Origin: Escherichia coli | Lineage (GTDB): Bacteria; Pseudomonadota; Gammaproteobacteria; Enterobacterales; Enterobacteriaceae | Length of the DNA: 64,000 bases | Reading direction: 5' to 3' (one strand) | Assembly (NCBI RefSeq): GCF_044647545.1 | Contig: NZ_CP172818.1 | Shown: piece after piece, positions 29,735-41,479 of the stretch | Numbering within the stretch: position 1 is the first letter of the stretch | How the letters are laid out: every line of letters starts with the position of its first letter | The notes under the pieces: model-generated | Databases searched by the model: none | The model's input: the letters and a program-made list of their open reading frames with translations, nothing else | What the model was told of the DNA's origin: nothing | Position numbers and translations under genes: made by a program

Positions 29735-29821
29735 TGGTGCGAGGGGGGGGACTTGAACCCCCACGTCCGTAAGAACACTAACACCTGAAGCTAGCGCGTC
29801 TACCAATTCCGCCACCTTCGC
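29735..29821 (-). tRNA. leuP: tRNA-Leu (CAG), variable-arm variant (GTGTTCTTACGGAC instead of GTGTCCTTACGGAC)
   Basis: Same 87-nt tRNA with a single C-to-T change; pairing preserved as a G-U wobble. Confidence 0.85.
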
Positions 29822-35946: not shown

Positions 35947-37020
35947 GTGGGGCAGCGAATACCTGTAACGCTTGGTAATATTGCGCCGTTGTCGCTAAGG
36001 CCGTTCCAGCCTGGACGAATAGCTCTGGTGTGCGAAGGCGGCGGGCAGCGTGGAATTTTCACAGCTGGCGTGCTGGATGAGTTTATGCGCGCGCAGTTTA
36101 ATCCTTTCGATCTTTATCTCGGCACATCTGCCGGGGCGCAGAACCTCTCGGCGTATATCTGCAATCAGCCCGGTTACGCGCGCAAAGTCATCATGCGCTA
36201 TACCACAAAACGCGAATTTTTCGATCCATTGCGCTTTGTCCGTGGAGGAAATCTTATCGATCTCGACTGGCTGGTGGAGGCCACCGCAAGCCAGATGCCG
36301 TTGCAAATGGACACCGCAGCGCGGCTATTTGACAGCGGCAAATCGTTTTATATGTGCGCCTGTCGTCAGGATGACTACGCGCCGAATTACTTTTTACCAA
36401 CCAAACAAAACTGGCTGGATGTGATTCGCGCCTCCAGTGCAATACCTGGCTTTTATCGTAGCGGAGTGTCGCTGGAAGGCATTAATTACCTGGATGGCGG
36501 GATCAGTGATGCGATCCCGGTTAAAGAGGCGGCAAGGCAGGGCGCAAAAACGTTGGTCGTTATCCGCACTGTGCCGTCACAAATGTACTATACGCCGCAG
36601 TGGTTCAAACGCATGGAACGCTGGCTGGGTGACAGTAGCCTGCAGCCGCTGGTCAATCTGGTGCAGCATCATGAAACCAGCTATCGTGAGATTCAGCAAT
36701 TTATTGAGAAACCACCGGGCCAGTTGAGGATATTCGAAATTTATCCGCCGAAGCCATTACATAGTATCGCGCTCGGCAGTCGGATTCCGGCGCTGCGTGA
36801 AGACTATAAACTTGGGCGTTTATGCGGGCGTTATTTTCTGGCAACGGTCGGTAAGTTATTGACTGAAAAAGCGCCGCTGAGCCGCCATCTGGTGCCGGTG
36901 GTGACGCCGGAGTCGATCGTTATTCCGCCTGCACCCGTCGCCAACGATACGCTGGTTACCGAGGTGATAGACGCTCCACAGGCGAACGACCCGACATTTA
37001 ACAATGAGGATTTGGCTTGA
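35947..37020 (+). CDS. yjjU: patatin-like phospholipase YjjU
   Basis: GTG start; CEGGGQRG and GTSAG patatin motifs. Confidence 0.8.
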   Translation: MGQRIPVTLGNIAPLSLRPFQPGRIALVCEGGGQRGIFTAGVLDEFMRAQFNPFDLYLGTSAGAQNLSAYICNQPGYARKVIMRYTTKREFFDPLRFVRGGNLIDLDWLVEATASQMPLQMDTAARLFDSGKSFYMCACRQDDYAPNYFLPTKQNWLDVIRASSAIPGFYRSGVSLEGINYLDGGISDAIPVKEAARQGAKTLVVIRTVPSQMYYTPQWFKRMERWLGDSSLQPLVNLVQHHETSYREIQQFIEKPPGQLRIFEIYPPKPLHSIALGSRIPALREDYKLGRLCGRYFLATVGKLLTEKAPLSRHLVPVVTPESIVIPPAPVANDTLVTEVIDAPQANDPTFNNEDLA

Positions 37021-37901
37021 TTTGCCGTTTTATCGACACCCACTGCCATTTTGATTTCCCGCCGTTTAGTGGCGATGAAGAGGCCAGCCTGCAACGCGCG
37101 GCACAAGCGGGCGTAGGCAAGATCATTGTTCCGGCCACCGAGGCGGCAAATTTTGCCCGCGTGCAGGCGTTAGCGGAAAATTATCAACCGCTGTATGCCG
37201 CTTTAGGGTTGCATCCGGGGATGTTGGAAAAACATAGCGATGTGTCTCTTGATCAGTTACAGCAGGCGTTGGGAAGACGTCCGACGAAGGTGGTGGCGGT
37301 GGGGGAGATCGGCCTGGATCTCTTTGGTGACGATCCGCAATTTGAGAGGCAGCAGTGGTTGCTTGATGAACAACTGAAACTGGCGAAACGCTACGATCTG
37401 CCGGTGATCCTTCATTCACGGCGCACGCACGACAAACTGGCGATGCATCTTAAACGCCAAAATTTGCCACGCACTGGTGTGGTTCATGGTTTTTCTGGCA
37501 GCCTGCAACAGGCCGAACGGTTTGTGCAGCTGGGCTACAAAATTGGCGTAGGCGGTACTATCACCTATCCACGCGCCAGTAAAACCCGCGATGTCATCGC
37601 AAAGCTGCCGCTGGCATCGATGTTGCTGGAGACCGACGCACCAGATATGCCGCTCAATGGTTTTCAGGGGCAGCCTAATCGCCCTGAACAGGCCGCCCGT
37701 GTGTTTGCCGTGCTGTGCGAGTTACGCCCGGAACCCGCGGATGAGATTGCCGAAGTGTTGCTTAATAACACGTATGCGGTGTTTAACGTTCGTGGAGCCG
37801 AGCCGAAGCGCACGCACGCAGCACAACGAGCCCCTAGTCTGCCCTTCGTAAGCCGGATAAGGCGTTCACACCGCATCCGGCAGTCGACGCACAATGCCTG
37901 A
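37017..37901 (+). CDS. yjjV: TatD-family metal-dependent hydrolase YjjV; 3' end uncertain because the ORF runs into a REP array
   Basis: IDTHCHFDF TatD motif at the N-terminus; C-terminal ~30 codons are encoded by REP sequence. Confidence 0.75.
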   Translation: MICRFIDTHCHFDFPPFSGDEEASLQRAAQAGVGKIIVPATEAANFARVQALAENYQPLYAALGLHPGMLEKHSDVSLDQLQQALGRRPTKVVAVGEIGLDLFGDDPQFERQQWLLDEQLKLAKRYDLPVILHSRRTHDKLAMHLKRQNLPRTGVVHGFSGSLQQAERFVQLGYKIGVGGTITYPRASKTRDVIAKLPLASMLLETDAPDMPLNGFQGQPNRPEQAARVFAVLCELRPEPADEIAEVLLNNTYAVFNVRGAEPKRTHAAQRAPSLPFVSRIRRSHRIRQSTHNA

Positions 37902-38050
37902 TGCGACGCTGACGCGTCTTATCATGCCTACAAGTCTGTGCCGAACCGTAGGCCGGATAAGGCGTTCACGCCGCATCCGGCAGTTGGCGCACAATGCCTG
38001 ATGCGACGCTGACGCGTCTTATCATGCCTACAGGTCTGTGCCGAACCGTA
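37845..38050. repeat. tandem REP/BIME array (two ~105-bp units)
   Basis: Two near-identical units gccggataaggcgttcac.ccgcatccggcagt...gatgcgacgctgacgcgtcttatcatgcctaca.gtctgtgccgaaccgtagg. Confidence 0.85.
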
Positions 38051-38055
38051 GGCTG

Positions 38056-38919
38056 TCACAAATACAGCGCCGGAAATATCAACCGGCTCACCCCGTGCTC
38101 CCGTAACGCATCAGCCAATTGCTCAACGTCTTCCGGCGTGGCGCTCGCCCAGCTTTGCGCCTCGCCATACACGCCGTGGGCATGAAACGCGTTCAGGCGT
38201 ACCGGAACATCGCCAAGTCCCTTGATAAACGCCGCCAGCTCATCGATATGCTGCAAATAATCCACGTGGCCTGGGATTACCAGCAAACGCAGTTCTGCCA
38301 GTTTGCCGCGCTCGGCAAGCAGACTAATGCTGCGCTTGATCTGCTGATTATCGCGTCCGGTTAGCTGTTGATGGCACGCGCCACCCCACGCTTTGAGGTC
38401 GAGCATCGCGCCGTCGCATACCGGGAGTAATTTTTCCCAGCCGGTTTCGCTCAACATGCCGTTACTGTCCACCAGACAGGTGAGATGACACAGTTGTGGA
38501 TCATTTTTGATAGCAGTAAACAGCGCCACCACAAACGGCAACTGGGTCGTGGCTTCACCGCCGCTTACCGTTATCCCTTCAATAAACAGCACCGCTTTGC
38601 GGACGTGACTAAGCACCTCGTCCACGTTCATGGATTGCGCCATCGGCGTAGCGTGTTGTGGACACATCTTCAGGCAGGTATCACACTGCTCGCAGACGGC
38701 TGCGTTCCACACTACTTTGCTGTTAACAATCTGCAACGCCTGATGCGGACACTGTGGCACGCACTCCCCGCAATCATTACAGCGCCCCATTGTCCACGGA
38801 TTGTGACAGTTTTTGCAGCGCAGATTACAGCCCTGTAAAAACAGAGCCAGACGACTGCCTGGCCCGTCAACGCAGGAGAAGGGGATAATCTTACTGACTA
38901 AAGCGCATCTGCTGTTCAT
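38056..38919 (-). CDS. yjjW: glycyl-radical enzyme activating protein (radical SAM)
   Basis: 287-aa ORF with CxxxCxxC radical-SAM cluster plus extra Cys-rich ferredoxin-like motifs. Confidence 0.85.
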
Positions 38920-40441
38920 GGCTTATCACGCGCGACTGGCGTTCCAGAATACGAGTGTTGCGTGCGGCTTCTTCTCCCAGCCAGGTGGTATTGGTACGTG
39001 AACCTTCGGCACGATATTTTTCTAAATCCGACAAACGCACCATATAACCGGTAACGCGAACCAGATCGTTACCGCTGACATTGGCGGTAAATTCACGCAT
39101 TCCGGCTTTAAAGGCACCGAGGCAAAGCTGTACCAGCGCCTGCGGATTACGTTTGATGGTTTCGTCGAGCGTCAAAATGTCGCTGATGCCGGAATAATAA
39201 TAAGCATGATGCGGGGCGACAGTTTGCAGATGGGTGATCGGATCTGGCTCATCGCCATACGGCAAACGCGCGCCCGGCGTGGTGCCGATATCGGAACTTA
39301 TCCCCGACTGTGCGTGTAGCATGGCGCGATTTTGCCAGCCATATTTCACGGGGGTATTGGCGACAAACTCCGCCAGTTGCGCGCTGATGCGATAACCCAC
39401 TTCATTTGCAGCGGCTTCTTTACCGTAACGTGCGGCAATTCCTTCTTTCTCACACAACAAGTTAACCGCTTCTGCCAGTCCGTACATGCCAAACATTGGC
39501 ACAAAACGTTCAGGGTTAATCAGCCCTTCTTTCACCAGGAAGCTATTCTCAAAGAAGTGTGATTGTTGATAGAGGAATTCACACCGCGCATCGATGATGG
39601 CGATTTGCTGCTGGCAGTAGTGCGGTAGAGTGCGCGTAAAGAAATCATCCAGCGATTCACTGCGCTCGGCAATGGCTTTCAGGTTAAGGCGTACCAGCGT
39701 GCTGCCACCACCCGCCAGCGGCAGTGAGTTGTAACAGCTCACAATCCCGTAGCCCCCTTTTGTGAAAATTTTATCATGCACGGGACCGTTGGCGATGTGC
39801 GGTTTGCTACATTCACAGATGTTTTTCGCCACTTCCAGCAGCAGGTCATCAGGGGTGATTTCAGGATCGTAGATAAAAGTCAGGTTCGGTGAAACCTGCT
39901 TCAGCTCTGAATCTGCCCGTAAAATCGCACGGGTAATGGGCGAATCAGACGGGCCAATATTGGCGTGCATAAAGGCATCTGGCAGGGTTCTATCGAGGTA
40001 ACGCCAGAAACGTTTTATTCGAATATCGATCTCGTTTTGTGTTAGAATTCTAACATACGGTTGCAACAACGCATCCAGTTGCCCCAGGTAGACCGGCATC
40101 GATGTGACCGAAGGAACGTGGTGGTAAAGAATGGTCAGCAGAGAGAGTGCGTCATCAAGATCTTTTGCGCCTTCCAGCTCCAGCCATTCGGAACCGTTGG
40201 CCAAAAAACGGGCGTAATCGGGTAAGACATAGCGCGGTTTATACGGCGCATGACCTTCAAACATATCGCAGATTACACCTTCATCCAGCGCGCGGCGGGC
40301 TTCGGCAGGAAGCTGTGGGTAAGGCAGATTGTTTTCTGCTTCCAGCGCCAGAAAATGGCGCTTCTGCTCCGGGCTAAGTACCGGACTGGTGACAATTTGC
40401 TGGCAACGTTGTTGCAGTGCATTTTCATGAGAAGTGGGCAT
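38891..40441 (-). CDS. yjjI: glycine-radical-enzyme-like protein YjjI (DUF3029)
   Basis: 516 aa from [15 protein letters not shown]; overlaps the yjjW start. Confidence 0.85.
40040..40055. promoter_or_regulatory. DeoR operator (deoP1 region), 16-bp palindrome TGTTAGAATTCTAACA
   Basis: Perfect palindrome; lies inside the yjjI coding region, 600 bp upstream of the second operator. Confidence 0.8.
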
Positions 40442-40639
40442 CTTCTGTTCCTTTTTATGCCGAAGGTGATGCGCCATTGTAAGAAGTTTCGTGATGTTCA
40501 CTTTGATCCTGATGCGTTTGCCACCACTGACGCATTCATTTGAAAGTGAATTATTTGAACCAGATCGCATTACAGTAATGCAATTTTGTAAGTAGATTTC
40601 CTTAATTGTGATGTATATCGAAGTGTGTTGCGGAGTCGA

Positions 40640-40655
40640 TGTTAGAATACTAACA
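40640..40655. promoter_or_regulatory. DeoR operator (deoP2 region) TGTTAGAATACTAACA
   Basis: Near-perfect palindrome about 45 bp upstream of the deoC ATG. Confidence 0.8.
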
Positions 40656-40699
40656 AACTCGCAAGGTGAATTTTATTGGCGACAAGCCAGGAGAATGAA

Positions 40700-41479
40700 A
40701 TGACTGATCTGAAAGCAAGCAGCCTGCGTGCACTGAAATTGATGGACCTGACCACCCTGAATGACGACGATACCGACGAGAAAGTGATCGCTCTGTGTCA
40801 TCAGGCCAAAACTCCGGTCGGTAATACCGCCGCTATCTGTATCTATCCTCGCTTTATCCCGATTGCTCGCAAAACGCTGAAAGAGCAGGGCACCCCGGAA
40901 ATCCGTATCGCTACGGTAACTAACTTCCCACACGGTAACGACGACATCGAAATCGCGCTGGCAGAAACCCGTGCGGCAATCGCCTACGGTGCCGATGAAG
41001 TTGATGTGGTGTTCCCGTACCGTGCACTGATGGCGGGTAACGAGCAGGTTGGTTTTGATCTGGTGAAAGCCTGTAAAGAGGCTTGCGCAGCAGCGAATGT
41101 ACTGCTGAAAGTGATCATCGAAACCGGCGAACTGAAAGACGAAGCGCTGATCCGCAAAGCGTCTGAAATATCCATTAAAGCGGGTGCTGATTTCATCAAA
41201 ACCTCTACCGGTAAAGTAGCAGTGAACGCGACGCCGGAAAGCGCGCGCATCATGATGGAAGTGATCCGTGATATGGGCGTAGAGAAAACCGTTGGTTTCA
41301 AACCGGCGGGCGGCGTGCGTACTGCGGAAGATGCGCAGAAATATCTCGCGATTGCAGATGAACTGTTCGGTGCTGACTGGGCTGATGCGCGTCACTACCG
41401 CTTTGGTGCTTCCAGCCTGCTGGCAAGCCTGCTGAAAGCGCTGGGCCACGGCGACGGTAAGAGCGCCAGCAGCTACTAA
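40700..41479 (+). CDS. deoC: deoxyribose-phosphate aldolase
   Basis: 259 aa from [26 protein letters not shown]; recognised as DeoC. Confidence 0.95.

Follow-up and report, generated by a model that had tools for sequence, protein, structure and literature searches.

The window, a stretch of 64,000 nucleotides of E. coli DNA analysed as a whole, harbours the deo control region, in which yjjW and yjjI, both on the minus strand, are followed by the divergent deoC on the plus strand (Table 1). Several E. coli genomes are 100% identical over this region and carry there the annotation yjjW, yjjI and deoC, with 258 bp separating yjjI from deoC. As described in the literature, a DeoR oligomer binds the palindromic operators OE, O1 and O2, loops the intervening DNA and represses both deoP1 and deoP2, until deoxyribose-5-phosphate releases DeoR; deoP2 is also controlled by CRP and CytR. 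Both promoters and their DeoR operators have been known since the 1980s, and the FNR-activated yjjIW pair and the genome positions of these elements are likewise already known. Very probably, the canonical deo control region of E. coli is interleaved at this locus with a divergent two-gene operon, yjjI-yjjW, the latter with a putative class II FNR promoter and likely cross-talk between the two. An Rfam scan of the locus returned matches to the REP-derived naRNA4 only, all of which are outside genes.

Table 1. Genes, regulatory sites and protein motifs at the locus (positions refer to the window).
Feature	Position	Strand	Description
yjjW CDS	38056-38919	-	287 aa, glycyl-radical-enzyme (GRE) activase
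YjjW CX2CX2CX3CP, second	38659-38694	-	residues 76-87
YjjW CX2CX2CX3CP, first	38746-38781	-	residues 47-58
YjjW CX3CX2C (CNLRCKNC)	38806-38829	-	radical-SAM cluster, residues 31-38
YjjW DGPGSR	38851-38868	-	residues 18-23
yjjI stop/yjjW start overlap	38891-38919	-	29 nt
yjjI CDS	38891-40441	-	516 aa, orphan glycyl radical enzyme
YjjI glycyl motif RVTGY	39044-39058	-	residues 462-466
YjjI SCYN motif with Cys236	39728-39739	-	Cys236 invariant in family alignment
OE, third DeoR operator, TGTGAAAATTTTATCA	39761-39776	.	yjjI codons 222-227; 4 mismatches to consensus
Conserved block CGCCAGAAACGTTTTATTCG	40002-40021	+	upstream of deoP1 -10; ~yjjI codons 141-147, rare codons ATA and CGA
O1/deoP1 operator TGTTAGAATTCTAACA	40040-40055	+	perfect palindrome, 0 mismatches
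Predicted yjjI -10 hexamer TACAAT	40476-40481	-	conserved across genera
Predicted FNR site CGCAT-CAGG-ATCAA	40503-40516	-	centre 40509.5, ~-40/-41 from predicted yjjI start
CRP-2 of deoP2 (presumed), TTTGAACCAGATCGCA	40554-40569	+	centre 40561.5, ~-94 from deoP2
CRP-1 of deoP2, TGTGATGTATATCGAA	40607-40622	+	centre ~-41 from deoP2
O2/deoP2 operator TGTTAGAATACTAACA	40640-40655	+	1 mismatch
deoC CDS	40700-41479	+	first gene of deoCABD; starts 45 nt after O2

A sequence-only reading of this DNA had placed two DeoR palindromes at 40040 and 40640, and both were recovered there: against the 16-bp palindrome pattern TGTTAGAA.TTCTAACA, the former (O1) shows no mismatch and the latter (O2) a single one, and both are the published palindromes (PMC5326754). 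They are the sole matches at ≤3 mismatches in the whole 64-kb window, for which 0.14 are expected by chance, and two or more operator matches were found in none of 100 shuffles of the sequence. The extended −10 element TGTTAGAAT is located inside both operators, at 40040–40048 for deoP1 and at 40640–40648 for deoP2, and from the sequence the start of deoP1 is predicted at ~40055 (+). A third operator, OE, which had been overlooked in that reading and matches the pattern with four mismatches, lies 279 bp upstream of O1 in this strain and in K-12 alike. The claim that O1 and O2 sit exactly 600 bp apart holds from start to start in this strain, but the distance is 599 bp in K-12 MG1655. Since K-12 has the shorter spacing and the extra base of the window belongs to a T-run at 40452–40456 in the 5′-UTR of yjjI, the 600 bp are a property of the strain and not of the system. 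In operator sequences, order, spacings (279 bp; 599 versus 600 bp) and position relative to deoC, the region is the same system as the K-12 deo control region, from which it differs by the one extra T and by a few substitutions between sites. Dandanell and Hammer are said to have given the exact spacings as 599 and 279 bp, which agree with the K-12 sequence. The published layout puts O1 and O2 ~600 bp apart and OE ~300 bp upstream of O1 (PMC8053113).

The upstream operators are at the same time coding sequence. O1 corresponds to nucleotides 387–402 of the yjjI CDS and spans codons 129–134 (TAT GTT AGA ATT CTA ACA, encoding YVRILT), which bears out the placement of the deoP1 operator within the 5′ coding region of yjjI, and OE reads T GAT AAA ATT TTC ACA on the yjjI strand. 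It could be argued that yjjI is mis-annotated, its true start being either downstream of O1 or, on the other side, at 40570, from where an ORF of 559 aa exists mechanically. However, the extension from 40570 is broken by the 1-bp indel between K-12 and the window and aligns as non-coding sequence with indels of lengths not divisible by three, a start beyond O1 conflicts with residues 62–128, many positions of which are conserved family-wide, and the same ATG is found in all orthologues. Such a mis-annotation is highly improbable, and both candidate starts were rejected on the grounds of the non-coding alignment, the strain indel and the conserved residues; the protein starts with MPTSH, as in the K-12 annotation. 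The sequence-only reading had staked its claim on the start codon not lying downstream of the operator, and the conservation of residues 62–128 indeed means that translation begins before O1.

Selection on the embedded sites was tested in 75 yjjI sequences, comprising the window and the loci of 74 other species, with deoC adjacent. Measured in 6-codon windows, synonymous diversity is lowest at OE (0.005) and at O1 (0.02), compared with 0.45 on average over the gene; next-lowest are the block upstream of deoP1 and the yjjW overlap, and synonymous variation is low in yjjI codons 507–516. Within the upstream block CGCCAGAAACGTTTTATTCG, third codon positions are conserved in the same comparison, and this block is probably the −35/UP-like region of deoP1. 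Furthermore, a search at ≤3 mismatches through 720 kb from 80 species loci gave 76 matches at O1, 60 at O2, one at OE and none elsewhere. Adjacency of deo and yjjIW is conserved across Enterobacteriaceae and Hafniaceae; an Rfam scan of the insert found in the deoC leader of Hafnia and Edwardsiella returned nothing. In four Proteus species, yjjIW adjoins smp-serB-radA, with no deoC, and both OE and O1 are absent, the corresponding codons varying freely and encoding other residues. Homologues at 46–66% identity also keep the enzyme–activase pair, with neither a deoC neighbour nor an operator. In the family alignment of YjjI, the residues encoded by the operators are located where the sequence is variable and prone to indels.

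These comparisons bear on whether the intragenic operators are chance palindromes arising from the YjjI amino-acid sequence, given that short AT-rich palindromes do arise randomly and that OE is four mismatches away from the consensus. Against such an origin stand the 0.14 matches expected in the window, the lack of any extra match in the 720 kb of related loci, the freezing of synonymous sites only where deoC is adjacent, the retention of the rare codons AGA, CTA, ATA and CGA, and the similar peptide context of Proteus, which is written in other nucleotides. A chance origin is exceedingly improbable and was ruled out by the comparative data. Instead, the sequence comparison indicates that deoP1 with O1 (yjjI codons 129–147) and OE (codons 222–227) are under purifying selection at synonymous positions where deoC adjoins, and that two variable loops of YjjI owe certain residues and rare codons to these regulatory sites.

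A scan for consensus promoters left deoP1, deoP2 and the yjjI promoter all uncalled, their −35 elements being poor; support for the three therefore comes from the literature, extended −10 motifs and phylogenetic footprinting. On the K-12 chromosome (NC_000913.3), the predicted starts correspond to ~4,617,091–4,617,093 (−) for yjjI, ~4,616,679 (+) for deoP1 and ~4,617,278 (+) for deoP2. For deoP2, we take TTTGAACCAGATCGCA to be the CRP-2 site, in line with the deoP2 literature, and the DNA bound by CytR is that between CRP-2 and CRP-1. A CRP-CytR-CRP cassette at deoP2 has been described (PMC3454398), and the motif reported for yjjI/deoC by CRP ChIP-seq in ETEC is identical in sequence to TGTGATGTATATCGAA (PMC4287617).

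For yjjI, the sequence predicts a transcription start at ~40468–40470 (−); the corresponding entry of Myers 2013 reads ‘TSS not known' (PMC3688515). In the predicted FNR site, the ATCAA half alone is conserved, with TTTGATCC invariant in 22 of the 23 aligned species. The same published data set counts yjjI among the genes activated directly by FNR and has an FNR ChIP peak 93 bp ahead of its ATG (PMC3688515). Judged by the class II FNR criterion (TTGAT-N4-ATCAA near −41.5), the region offers one conserved half-site at the correct distance from the conserved TACAAT. We infer that the 258-bp intergenic region contains a class II FNR promoter from which yjjI is transcribed. The CRP-2 site of deo is centred ~−92/−93 from the predicted yjjI start. 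Promoters of the ansB type are co-activated by FNR (at −41.5) and CRP (at −91.5), and the predicted yjjI promoter is like them in having its FNR half-site at ~−40/−41 and CRP-2 at ~−92/−93, but differs in that the yjjI case is purely sequence-based and an action of CRP on yjjI is hypothetical. Published work shows joint regulation of yjjI and yjjW, with activation by FNR and, in Yersinia, anaerobic induction, and in one study yjjI clusters with genes of nitrate/nitrite respiration. The co-transcription proposed for yjjI and yjjW in the earlier reading fits the overlap of the two genes and their joint changes in published expression data.

The two proteins are of the kinds that had been proposed. 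YjjI, assigned to DUF3029 in the earlier reading, matches PF11230 (732 bits) and TIGR04040, ‘YjjI family glycine radical enzyme' (788 bits; curated cutoff of 498 bits). YjjW, which had been called a radical-SAM activase with extra Fe-S motifs, matches TIGR04041 (395 bits; cutoff of 250 bits) and carries two ferredoxin-like Cys motifs; these place it in the subclass of activases whose ferredoxin-like insert bears two motifs for auxiliary 4Fe-4S clusters, as do its Fer4-family matches. Among 27 diverse homologues of YjjI, R462 and G465 of the glycyl motif are nearly invariant, and Cys236 may be the catalytic Cys of the finger loop. Family matches and motifs together indicate that YjjI is an orphan glycyl radical enzyme and YjjW its radical-SAM activase. 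The overlap claimed between the two genes measures 29 nt and is kept in nearly all of the 80 species loci and in most of the distant homologues examined; as no obvious Shine-Dalgarno sequence precedes the yjjW start, translational coupling of yjjI and yjjW is likely.

The AlphaFold model of YjjI (pLDDT of 91.7) has NrdD as its best Foldseek match (E value of 1e-18, TM of 0.77), followed by other glycyl radical enzymes; no protein of any other kind is among the 50 best PDB matches, which agrees with the ten-stranded α/β barrel of glycyl radical enzymes and ribonucleotide reductases. A search of PDB chains with the YjjI sequence gave no match. By this model, the predicted fold of YjjI is closest to class III ribonucleotide reductase. 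With NrdD, YjjI has in common the predicted fold, the RVxGY glycyl motif near the C-terminus, a conserved Cys on a putative loop and an activase encoded next to it; it differs in having only 516 aa, in its identity of ~14%, and in being without the Cys-rich Zn site of the C-terminal region. A literature search on yjjI and yjjW/DUF3029 found no biochemical study of YjjI, and when the neighbourhoods of distant homologues were searched for a hint of the substrate, the activase was the sole conserved neighbour.

It had further been suggested that expression of yjjI may be coupled to looping by DeoR or to the activity of deoP1, and such coupling is physically plausible from the layout. Transcripts from deoP1 would run antisense to the yjjI promoter, the yjjI 5′-UTR and the first 387 nt of the CDS. 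The predicted yjjI promoter (~40469, −) would face deoP1 (~40055, +) at a distance of ~415 bp and from within the O1–O2 loop, and DeoR bound at O1 and OE would be in the path of polymerases transcribing yjjI. Some cross-talk between deo and yjjI, of whatever size and sign, is therefore likely.

One reading, to which we give a little less than an even chance, is that DeoR occupancy (as roadblock or through looping), deoP1 antisense transcription or both gate yjjIW, so that deoxyribose-5-phosphate would modulate the radical enzyme. It is favoured by the facing arrangement of deoP1 and the predicted yjjI promoter, by the location of O1 and OE, which transcription of yjjI would reach after ~415 and ~695 nt, and by the position of the yjjI promoter inside the O1–O2 loop, for which in vivo looping is predicted at ~72% (PMC8053113). 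However, the effects would oppose each other, as bound DeoR means a roadblock without antisense transcription and released DeoR the reverse. Moreover, deoP1 is weaker than deoP2. As yjjI is induced anaerobically in ordinary media, where DeoR is expectedly bound, any roadblock at O1 and OE must leak.

Alternatively, deoP1, O1 and OE may serve deo alone and be embedded in yjjI merely because deo adjoins it, with no meaningful effect on yjjIW, a reading that also falls just short of even probability. Under it, deo regulation by itself fully accounts for the synonymous constraint, and the embedded sites would lock synteny with or without coupling; the clear anaerobic induction of yjjI with DeoR present agrees with it, as does a literature search, which yielded no paper linking DeoR to yjjI. 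Proteus and distant taxa also have the yjjIW pair but no deo beside it, and the function of the pair therefore does not need deo. On the other hand, some interference is usual between convergent promoters that are ~415 bp from each other and whose transcripts overlap completely, and the CRP-2 region of deoP2 appears to be common to deoP2 and the predicted yjjI promoter.

The most far-reaching version of such gating holds that the ~645-nt deoP1 leader acts as an excludon-like antisense regulator alongside roadblocks at O1 and OE, through which deoxyribose-5-phosphate would gate an NrdD-like enzyme acting on a substrate of anaerobic (deoxy)ribose or nucleoside metabolism; this is unlikely. The fold nearest to ribonucleotide reductase and the adjacency conserved in Enterobacteriaceae and Hafniaceae are compatible with this functional tie, and the occurrence of the pair without deo and the clustering of yjjI with nitrate/nitrite respiration genes speak against it. 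Excludon-type or convergent-promoter interference is found in the excludons of Listeria and at pR/pL of phage 186, which the locus resembles in that the leader would be antisense across the start of the divergent yjjI.

Were the coupling true, it would provide the first physiological handle on this orphan glycyl radical enzyme; if not, the locus is simply the known arrangement. The locus is an easy test bed for convergent-promoter and roadblock effects in the best-studied bacterium, and a clean natural example of a regulatory code overprinted on a protein code, with synonymous sites frozen, rare codons kept and residues dictated in two YjjI loops. The classic deo papers reportedly took the DNA upstream of deoP2 as regulatory and not as DNA that encodes a divergent gene, and it is less appreciated that the coding sequence of an independently regulated neighbour contains an entire promoter of another operon together with two of its operators. 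Auxiliary operators inside coding sequences are familiar from lac O2 in lacZ and gal OI in galE, which likewise are repressor looping sites within an ORF and under double constraint. There, however, the ORF belongs to the regulated operon, whereas here it belongs to a divergent gene under separate FNR regulation, and the whole promoter deoP1 is embedded too.

The deo control region is well known, and the orphan radical-enzyme pair beside it, the glycyl radical enzyme YjjI and its radical-SAM activase YjjW, is annotated in E. coli. New here are the location of a third DeoR operator (OE) inside yjjI, quantified constraint at synonymous sites and residues from the operators and deoP1, an apparent lineage-specific origin of the intragenic sites, and a predicted yjjI promoter architecture. 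The region 37900-40800 is 100% identical to several complete genomes, which label it yjjW, yjjI and deoC, and 95% identical to E. coli K-12 MG1655. yjjI and yjjW share 29 nt, and the yjjW ATG has no obvious ribosome-binding site ahead of it.

Features of the yjjW-yjjI-deoC locus, in window positions
Feature	Position	Strand	Remarks
yjjW	38056-38919	-	CDS
OE	39761-39776		TGTGAAAATTTTATCA
yjjI	38891-40441	-	CDS, 516 aa; start as in K-12 annotation
O1	40040-40055		16-bp palindrome, perfect
TACAAT hexamer	40481 to 40476	-	conserved by footprinting
TTGAT half-site	40503-40507		invariant by footprinting; 21 nt upstream of TACAAT
O2	40640-40655		16-bp palindrome, one mismatch
deoC	start 40700		

Two DeoR palindromes, O1 at promoter deoP1 and O2 at deoP2, were found in the window; nothing else in the 64 kb matches with three or fewer mismatches (0.14 expected), and none of 100 shuffles yielded two. 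Both strings are published palindromes bound by DeoR (PMC5326754), confirming the operators that a sequence-only reading had placed at 40040 and 40640. That reading was real and correctly described, save for its missing OE and for the spacing: 'exactly 600 bp' holds in the window but is strain-specific, being 599 bp in K-12, 598-599 bp in other Escherichia and 568 to 612 bp in further genera. The base extra to K-12 sits in a T-run (40452-40456) of the yjjI 5′-UTR. Dandanell and Hammer reportedly gave 599 bp. OE lies 279 bp upstream of O1, identically in the window strain and K-12, which fits the published layout of tandem-promoter O1 and O2 ~600 bp apart with OE ~300 bp further upstream (PMC8053113). 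Elsewhere in the window, CGTAAGAACACTAACA at 29768-29783 resembles the DeoR operator with four mismatches, probably by chance.

O1 corresponds to yjjI codons 129-134 (T GTT AGA ATT CTA ACA) and OE to codons 222-227 (T GAT AAA ATT TTC ACA), in a common codon phase. A yjjI start downstream of O1, which would have placed the operator outside the coding region, was excluded: many positions among residues 62-128 are kept in homologues down to ~35% identity, therefore translation starts upstream of O1. A longer, 559-aa ORF from 40570 was rejected as yjjI, as its extension holds a 1-bp strain polymorphism and aligns between genera like non-coding DNA.

We compared 80 YjjI-encoding loci, taken at species level. 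yjjI has deoC as its divergent neighbour in all Enterobacteriaceae, Hafnia and Edwardsiella; in four Proteus species yjjIW adjoins smp-serB-radA without deoC. All deoC-adjacent loci carry an O1-like site (0-2 mismatches), always at exactly CDS offset 386; no Proteus locus carries one. Matches with up to three mismatches in the 720 kb of these loci numbered 76 at the O1 position, 60 at O2 and one at OE, with none elsewhere. When synonymous variation was scanned in 6-codon windows along a codon alignment of 75 deoC-adjacent yjjI sequences, the minima of the whole gene fell at OE (0.005) and O1 (0.02; gene mean 0.45), followed by codons 138-146 (40002-40021), directly upstream of the deoP1 -10 element, and then codons 507-516, at the overlap with the start of yjjW. 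Rare codons (AGA, CTA, ATA and CGA) are kept in the low-diversity blocks. At the equivalent positions in Proteus, codons vary freely and specify different residues (YVG[E/N/S]LT and DAVFG), and both operator-encoded segments lie in variable, indel-prone regions of a 27-sequence family alignment. Distant homologues (46-66% identity) retain the enzyme-activase pair and lack both the deoC neighbour and the operator. Taken together, these comparisons show the operators and deoP1 to be functional, selected elements that have shaped the YjjI sequence; the intragenic sites seem to have arisen in the lineage with deo beside yjjI, and from outgroup states we infer the direction of residue change (G131 to R/K, among others).

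Synonymous variation is also low at FFENSF (codons 291-296, 39554-39571; 0.10 versus the mean of 0.45), where a low-diversity stretch of codons 295-302 (39536-39559) begins; no recognised element corresponds to it, and codon bias at two-fold degenerate sites or an unrecognised element could account for it. In Hafnia alvei and Edwardsiella piscicida, a conserved ~200-nt insert without an Rfam match lies between O2 and the deoC ATG; it is absent from Enterobacteriaceae.

Phylogenetic footprinting of the yjjI-deoC intergenic region recovered O2, the two CRP sites and the CytR DNA of deoP2, together with the TACAAT hexamer and TTGAT half-site. The latter two would form a class II FNR promoter driving yjjI, with a start near 40468-40470, from which the deoP2 CRP site that we take to be CRP-2 (centre 40561.5) would lie at about -92/-93 (-94 from deoP2). 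ansB is an example of a promoter co-activated by FNR and CRP, and the predicted yjjI geometry resembles such promoters. A published study lists yjjI among the genes that FNR activates directly and places a ChIP peak 93 bp before its ATG (PMC3688515). In HU-mutant arrays yjjI and yjjW show similar behaviour, anaerobiosis induces both genes in Yersinia intermedia, and nitrate/nitrite respiration genes cluster with yjjI in one study. The sole promoter-like match of a consensus scan (39768-39795) overlaps OE, reading on the minus, yjjI strand as TGATAAAAT, an extended -10-like element; TGTTAGAAT occurs on both O1 strands because O1 is a perfect palindrome. DeoR-controlled internal yjjI-sense starts are conceivable. 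A CRP ChIP-seq peak inside yjjI was reported in ETEC, with motif CGTACCGTCGGTCACA (PMC4287617); the variant TGTGACCGAAGGAACG at 40103-40118 (+ strand), ~50 bp downstream of deoP1, may represent a weak CRP site, or else an artefact of cross-linking across a loop.

The layout makes cross-talk between deo and yjjI, raised in the sequence-only reading, plausible. deoP1, with an extended -10 element in O1 and a putative start near 40055, would face the predicted yjjI promoter ~415 bp away, so its transcripts would be antisense to that promoter, the 5′-UTR and the first 387 nt of CDS. Polymerase transcribing yjjI would meet O1 after roughly 415 nt and OE after roughly 695 nt, and the yjjI promoter would lie inside the O1-O2 loop, whose in vivo looping is estimated at ~72% (PMC8053113). 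Two effects of opposite sign could follow: bound DeoR may act as a roadblock or through the loop while deoP1 is silent, and its release would lift the roadblock and switch on convergent transcription. Since yjjI is well induced anaerobically in ordinary media (PMC3688515 among others), any roadblock must be leaky. Conserved gene order does not in itself speak for coupling: the deo control sites embedded in yjjI are enough to lock it. A literature search found no paper on DeoR and yjjI together. Coupling is a reasonable hypothesis; the chance of a measurable effect seems about even, and that of an adaptive one low.

The description of YjjI-YjjW as a glycyl-radical-like pair was borne out. YjjI far exceeds the cutoffs of PF11230 and TIGR04040 and carries RVTGY (residues 462-466) and an invariant Cys236. 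A sequence search of PDB gave no match to YjjI; its confident AlphaFold model from a diverse alignment (pLDDT 91.7, pTM 0.91) most resembles class III ribonucleotide reductases (8p2s_B, E 1e-18, TM 0.77), followed by PflD, hydroxyproline dehydratases, PFL and benzylsuccinate synthase. YjjW matches TIGR04041 and has DGPGSR, CX3CX2C and two CX2CX2CX3CP motifs, the last being the extra Fe-S motifs noted earlier. The YjjI family is small (543 cluster representatives among 1.8 billion), and its sole conserved neighbour is the activase, so gene context gives no substrate clue; a literature search found no biochemical study of YjjI.

yjjW differs from K-12 at 7.9% of nucleotides and 5.2% of residues, against ~3% and at most 1% for yjjI, deoC and deoA; by this comparison the activase evolves much faster within E. 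coli than its partner and neighbours. A strong intragenic sigma-54 site within K-12 yjjW (IS57, CTGGCTCTGTTTTTGCA; PMC4591121) corresponds to 38834-38850 (minus strand), where the window reads ...TTTTTACA, a synonymous change that loses the GC of the -12 element. A 574-aa NCBI protein (P0004) from a 2.9-kb contig joins PF11230 (YjjI-like) and PF01791 (DeoC aldolase) domains; it probably arose through misassembly or faulty gene calling across the divergent yjjI-deoC junction. The yjjV ORF (37017-37901) encodes 294 aa versus 259 aa in K-12, departing after ...FNV and running 35 further codons into a REP region. Two tandem REP/BIME copies (37851-37928 and 37951-38028) lie between yjjV and yjjW, both matching Rfam naRNA4 (RF02564; 79 and 70 bits) above the gathering score, and explain why BLAST placed matches at many additional sites in each genome.
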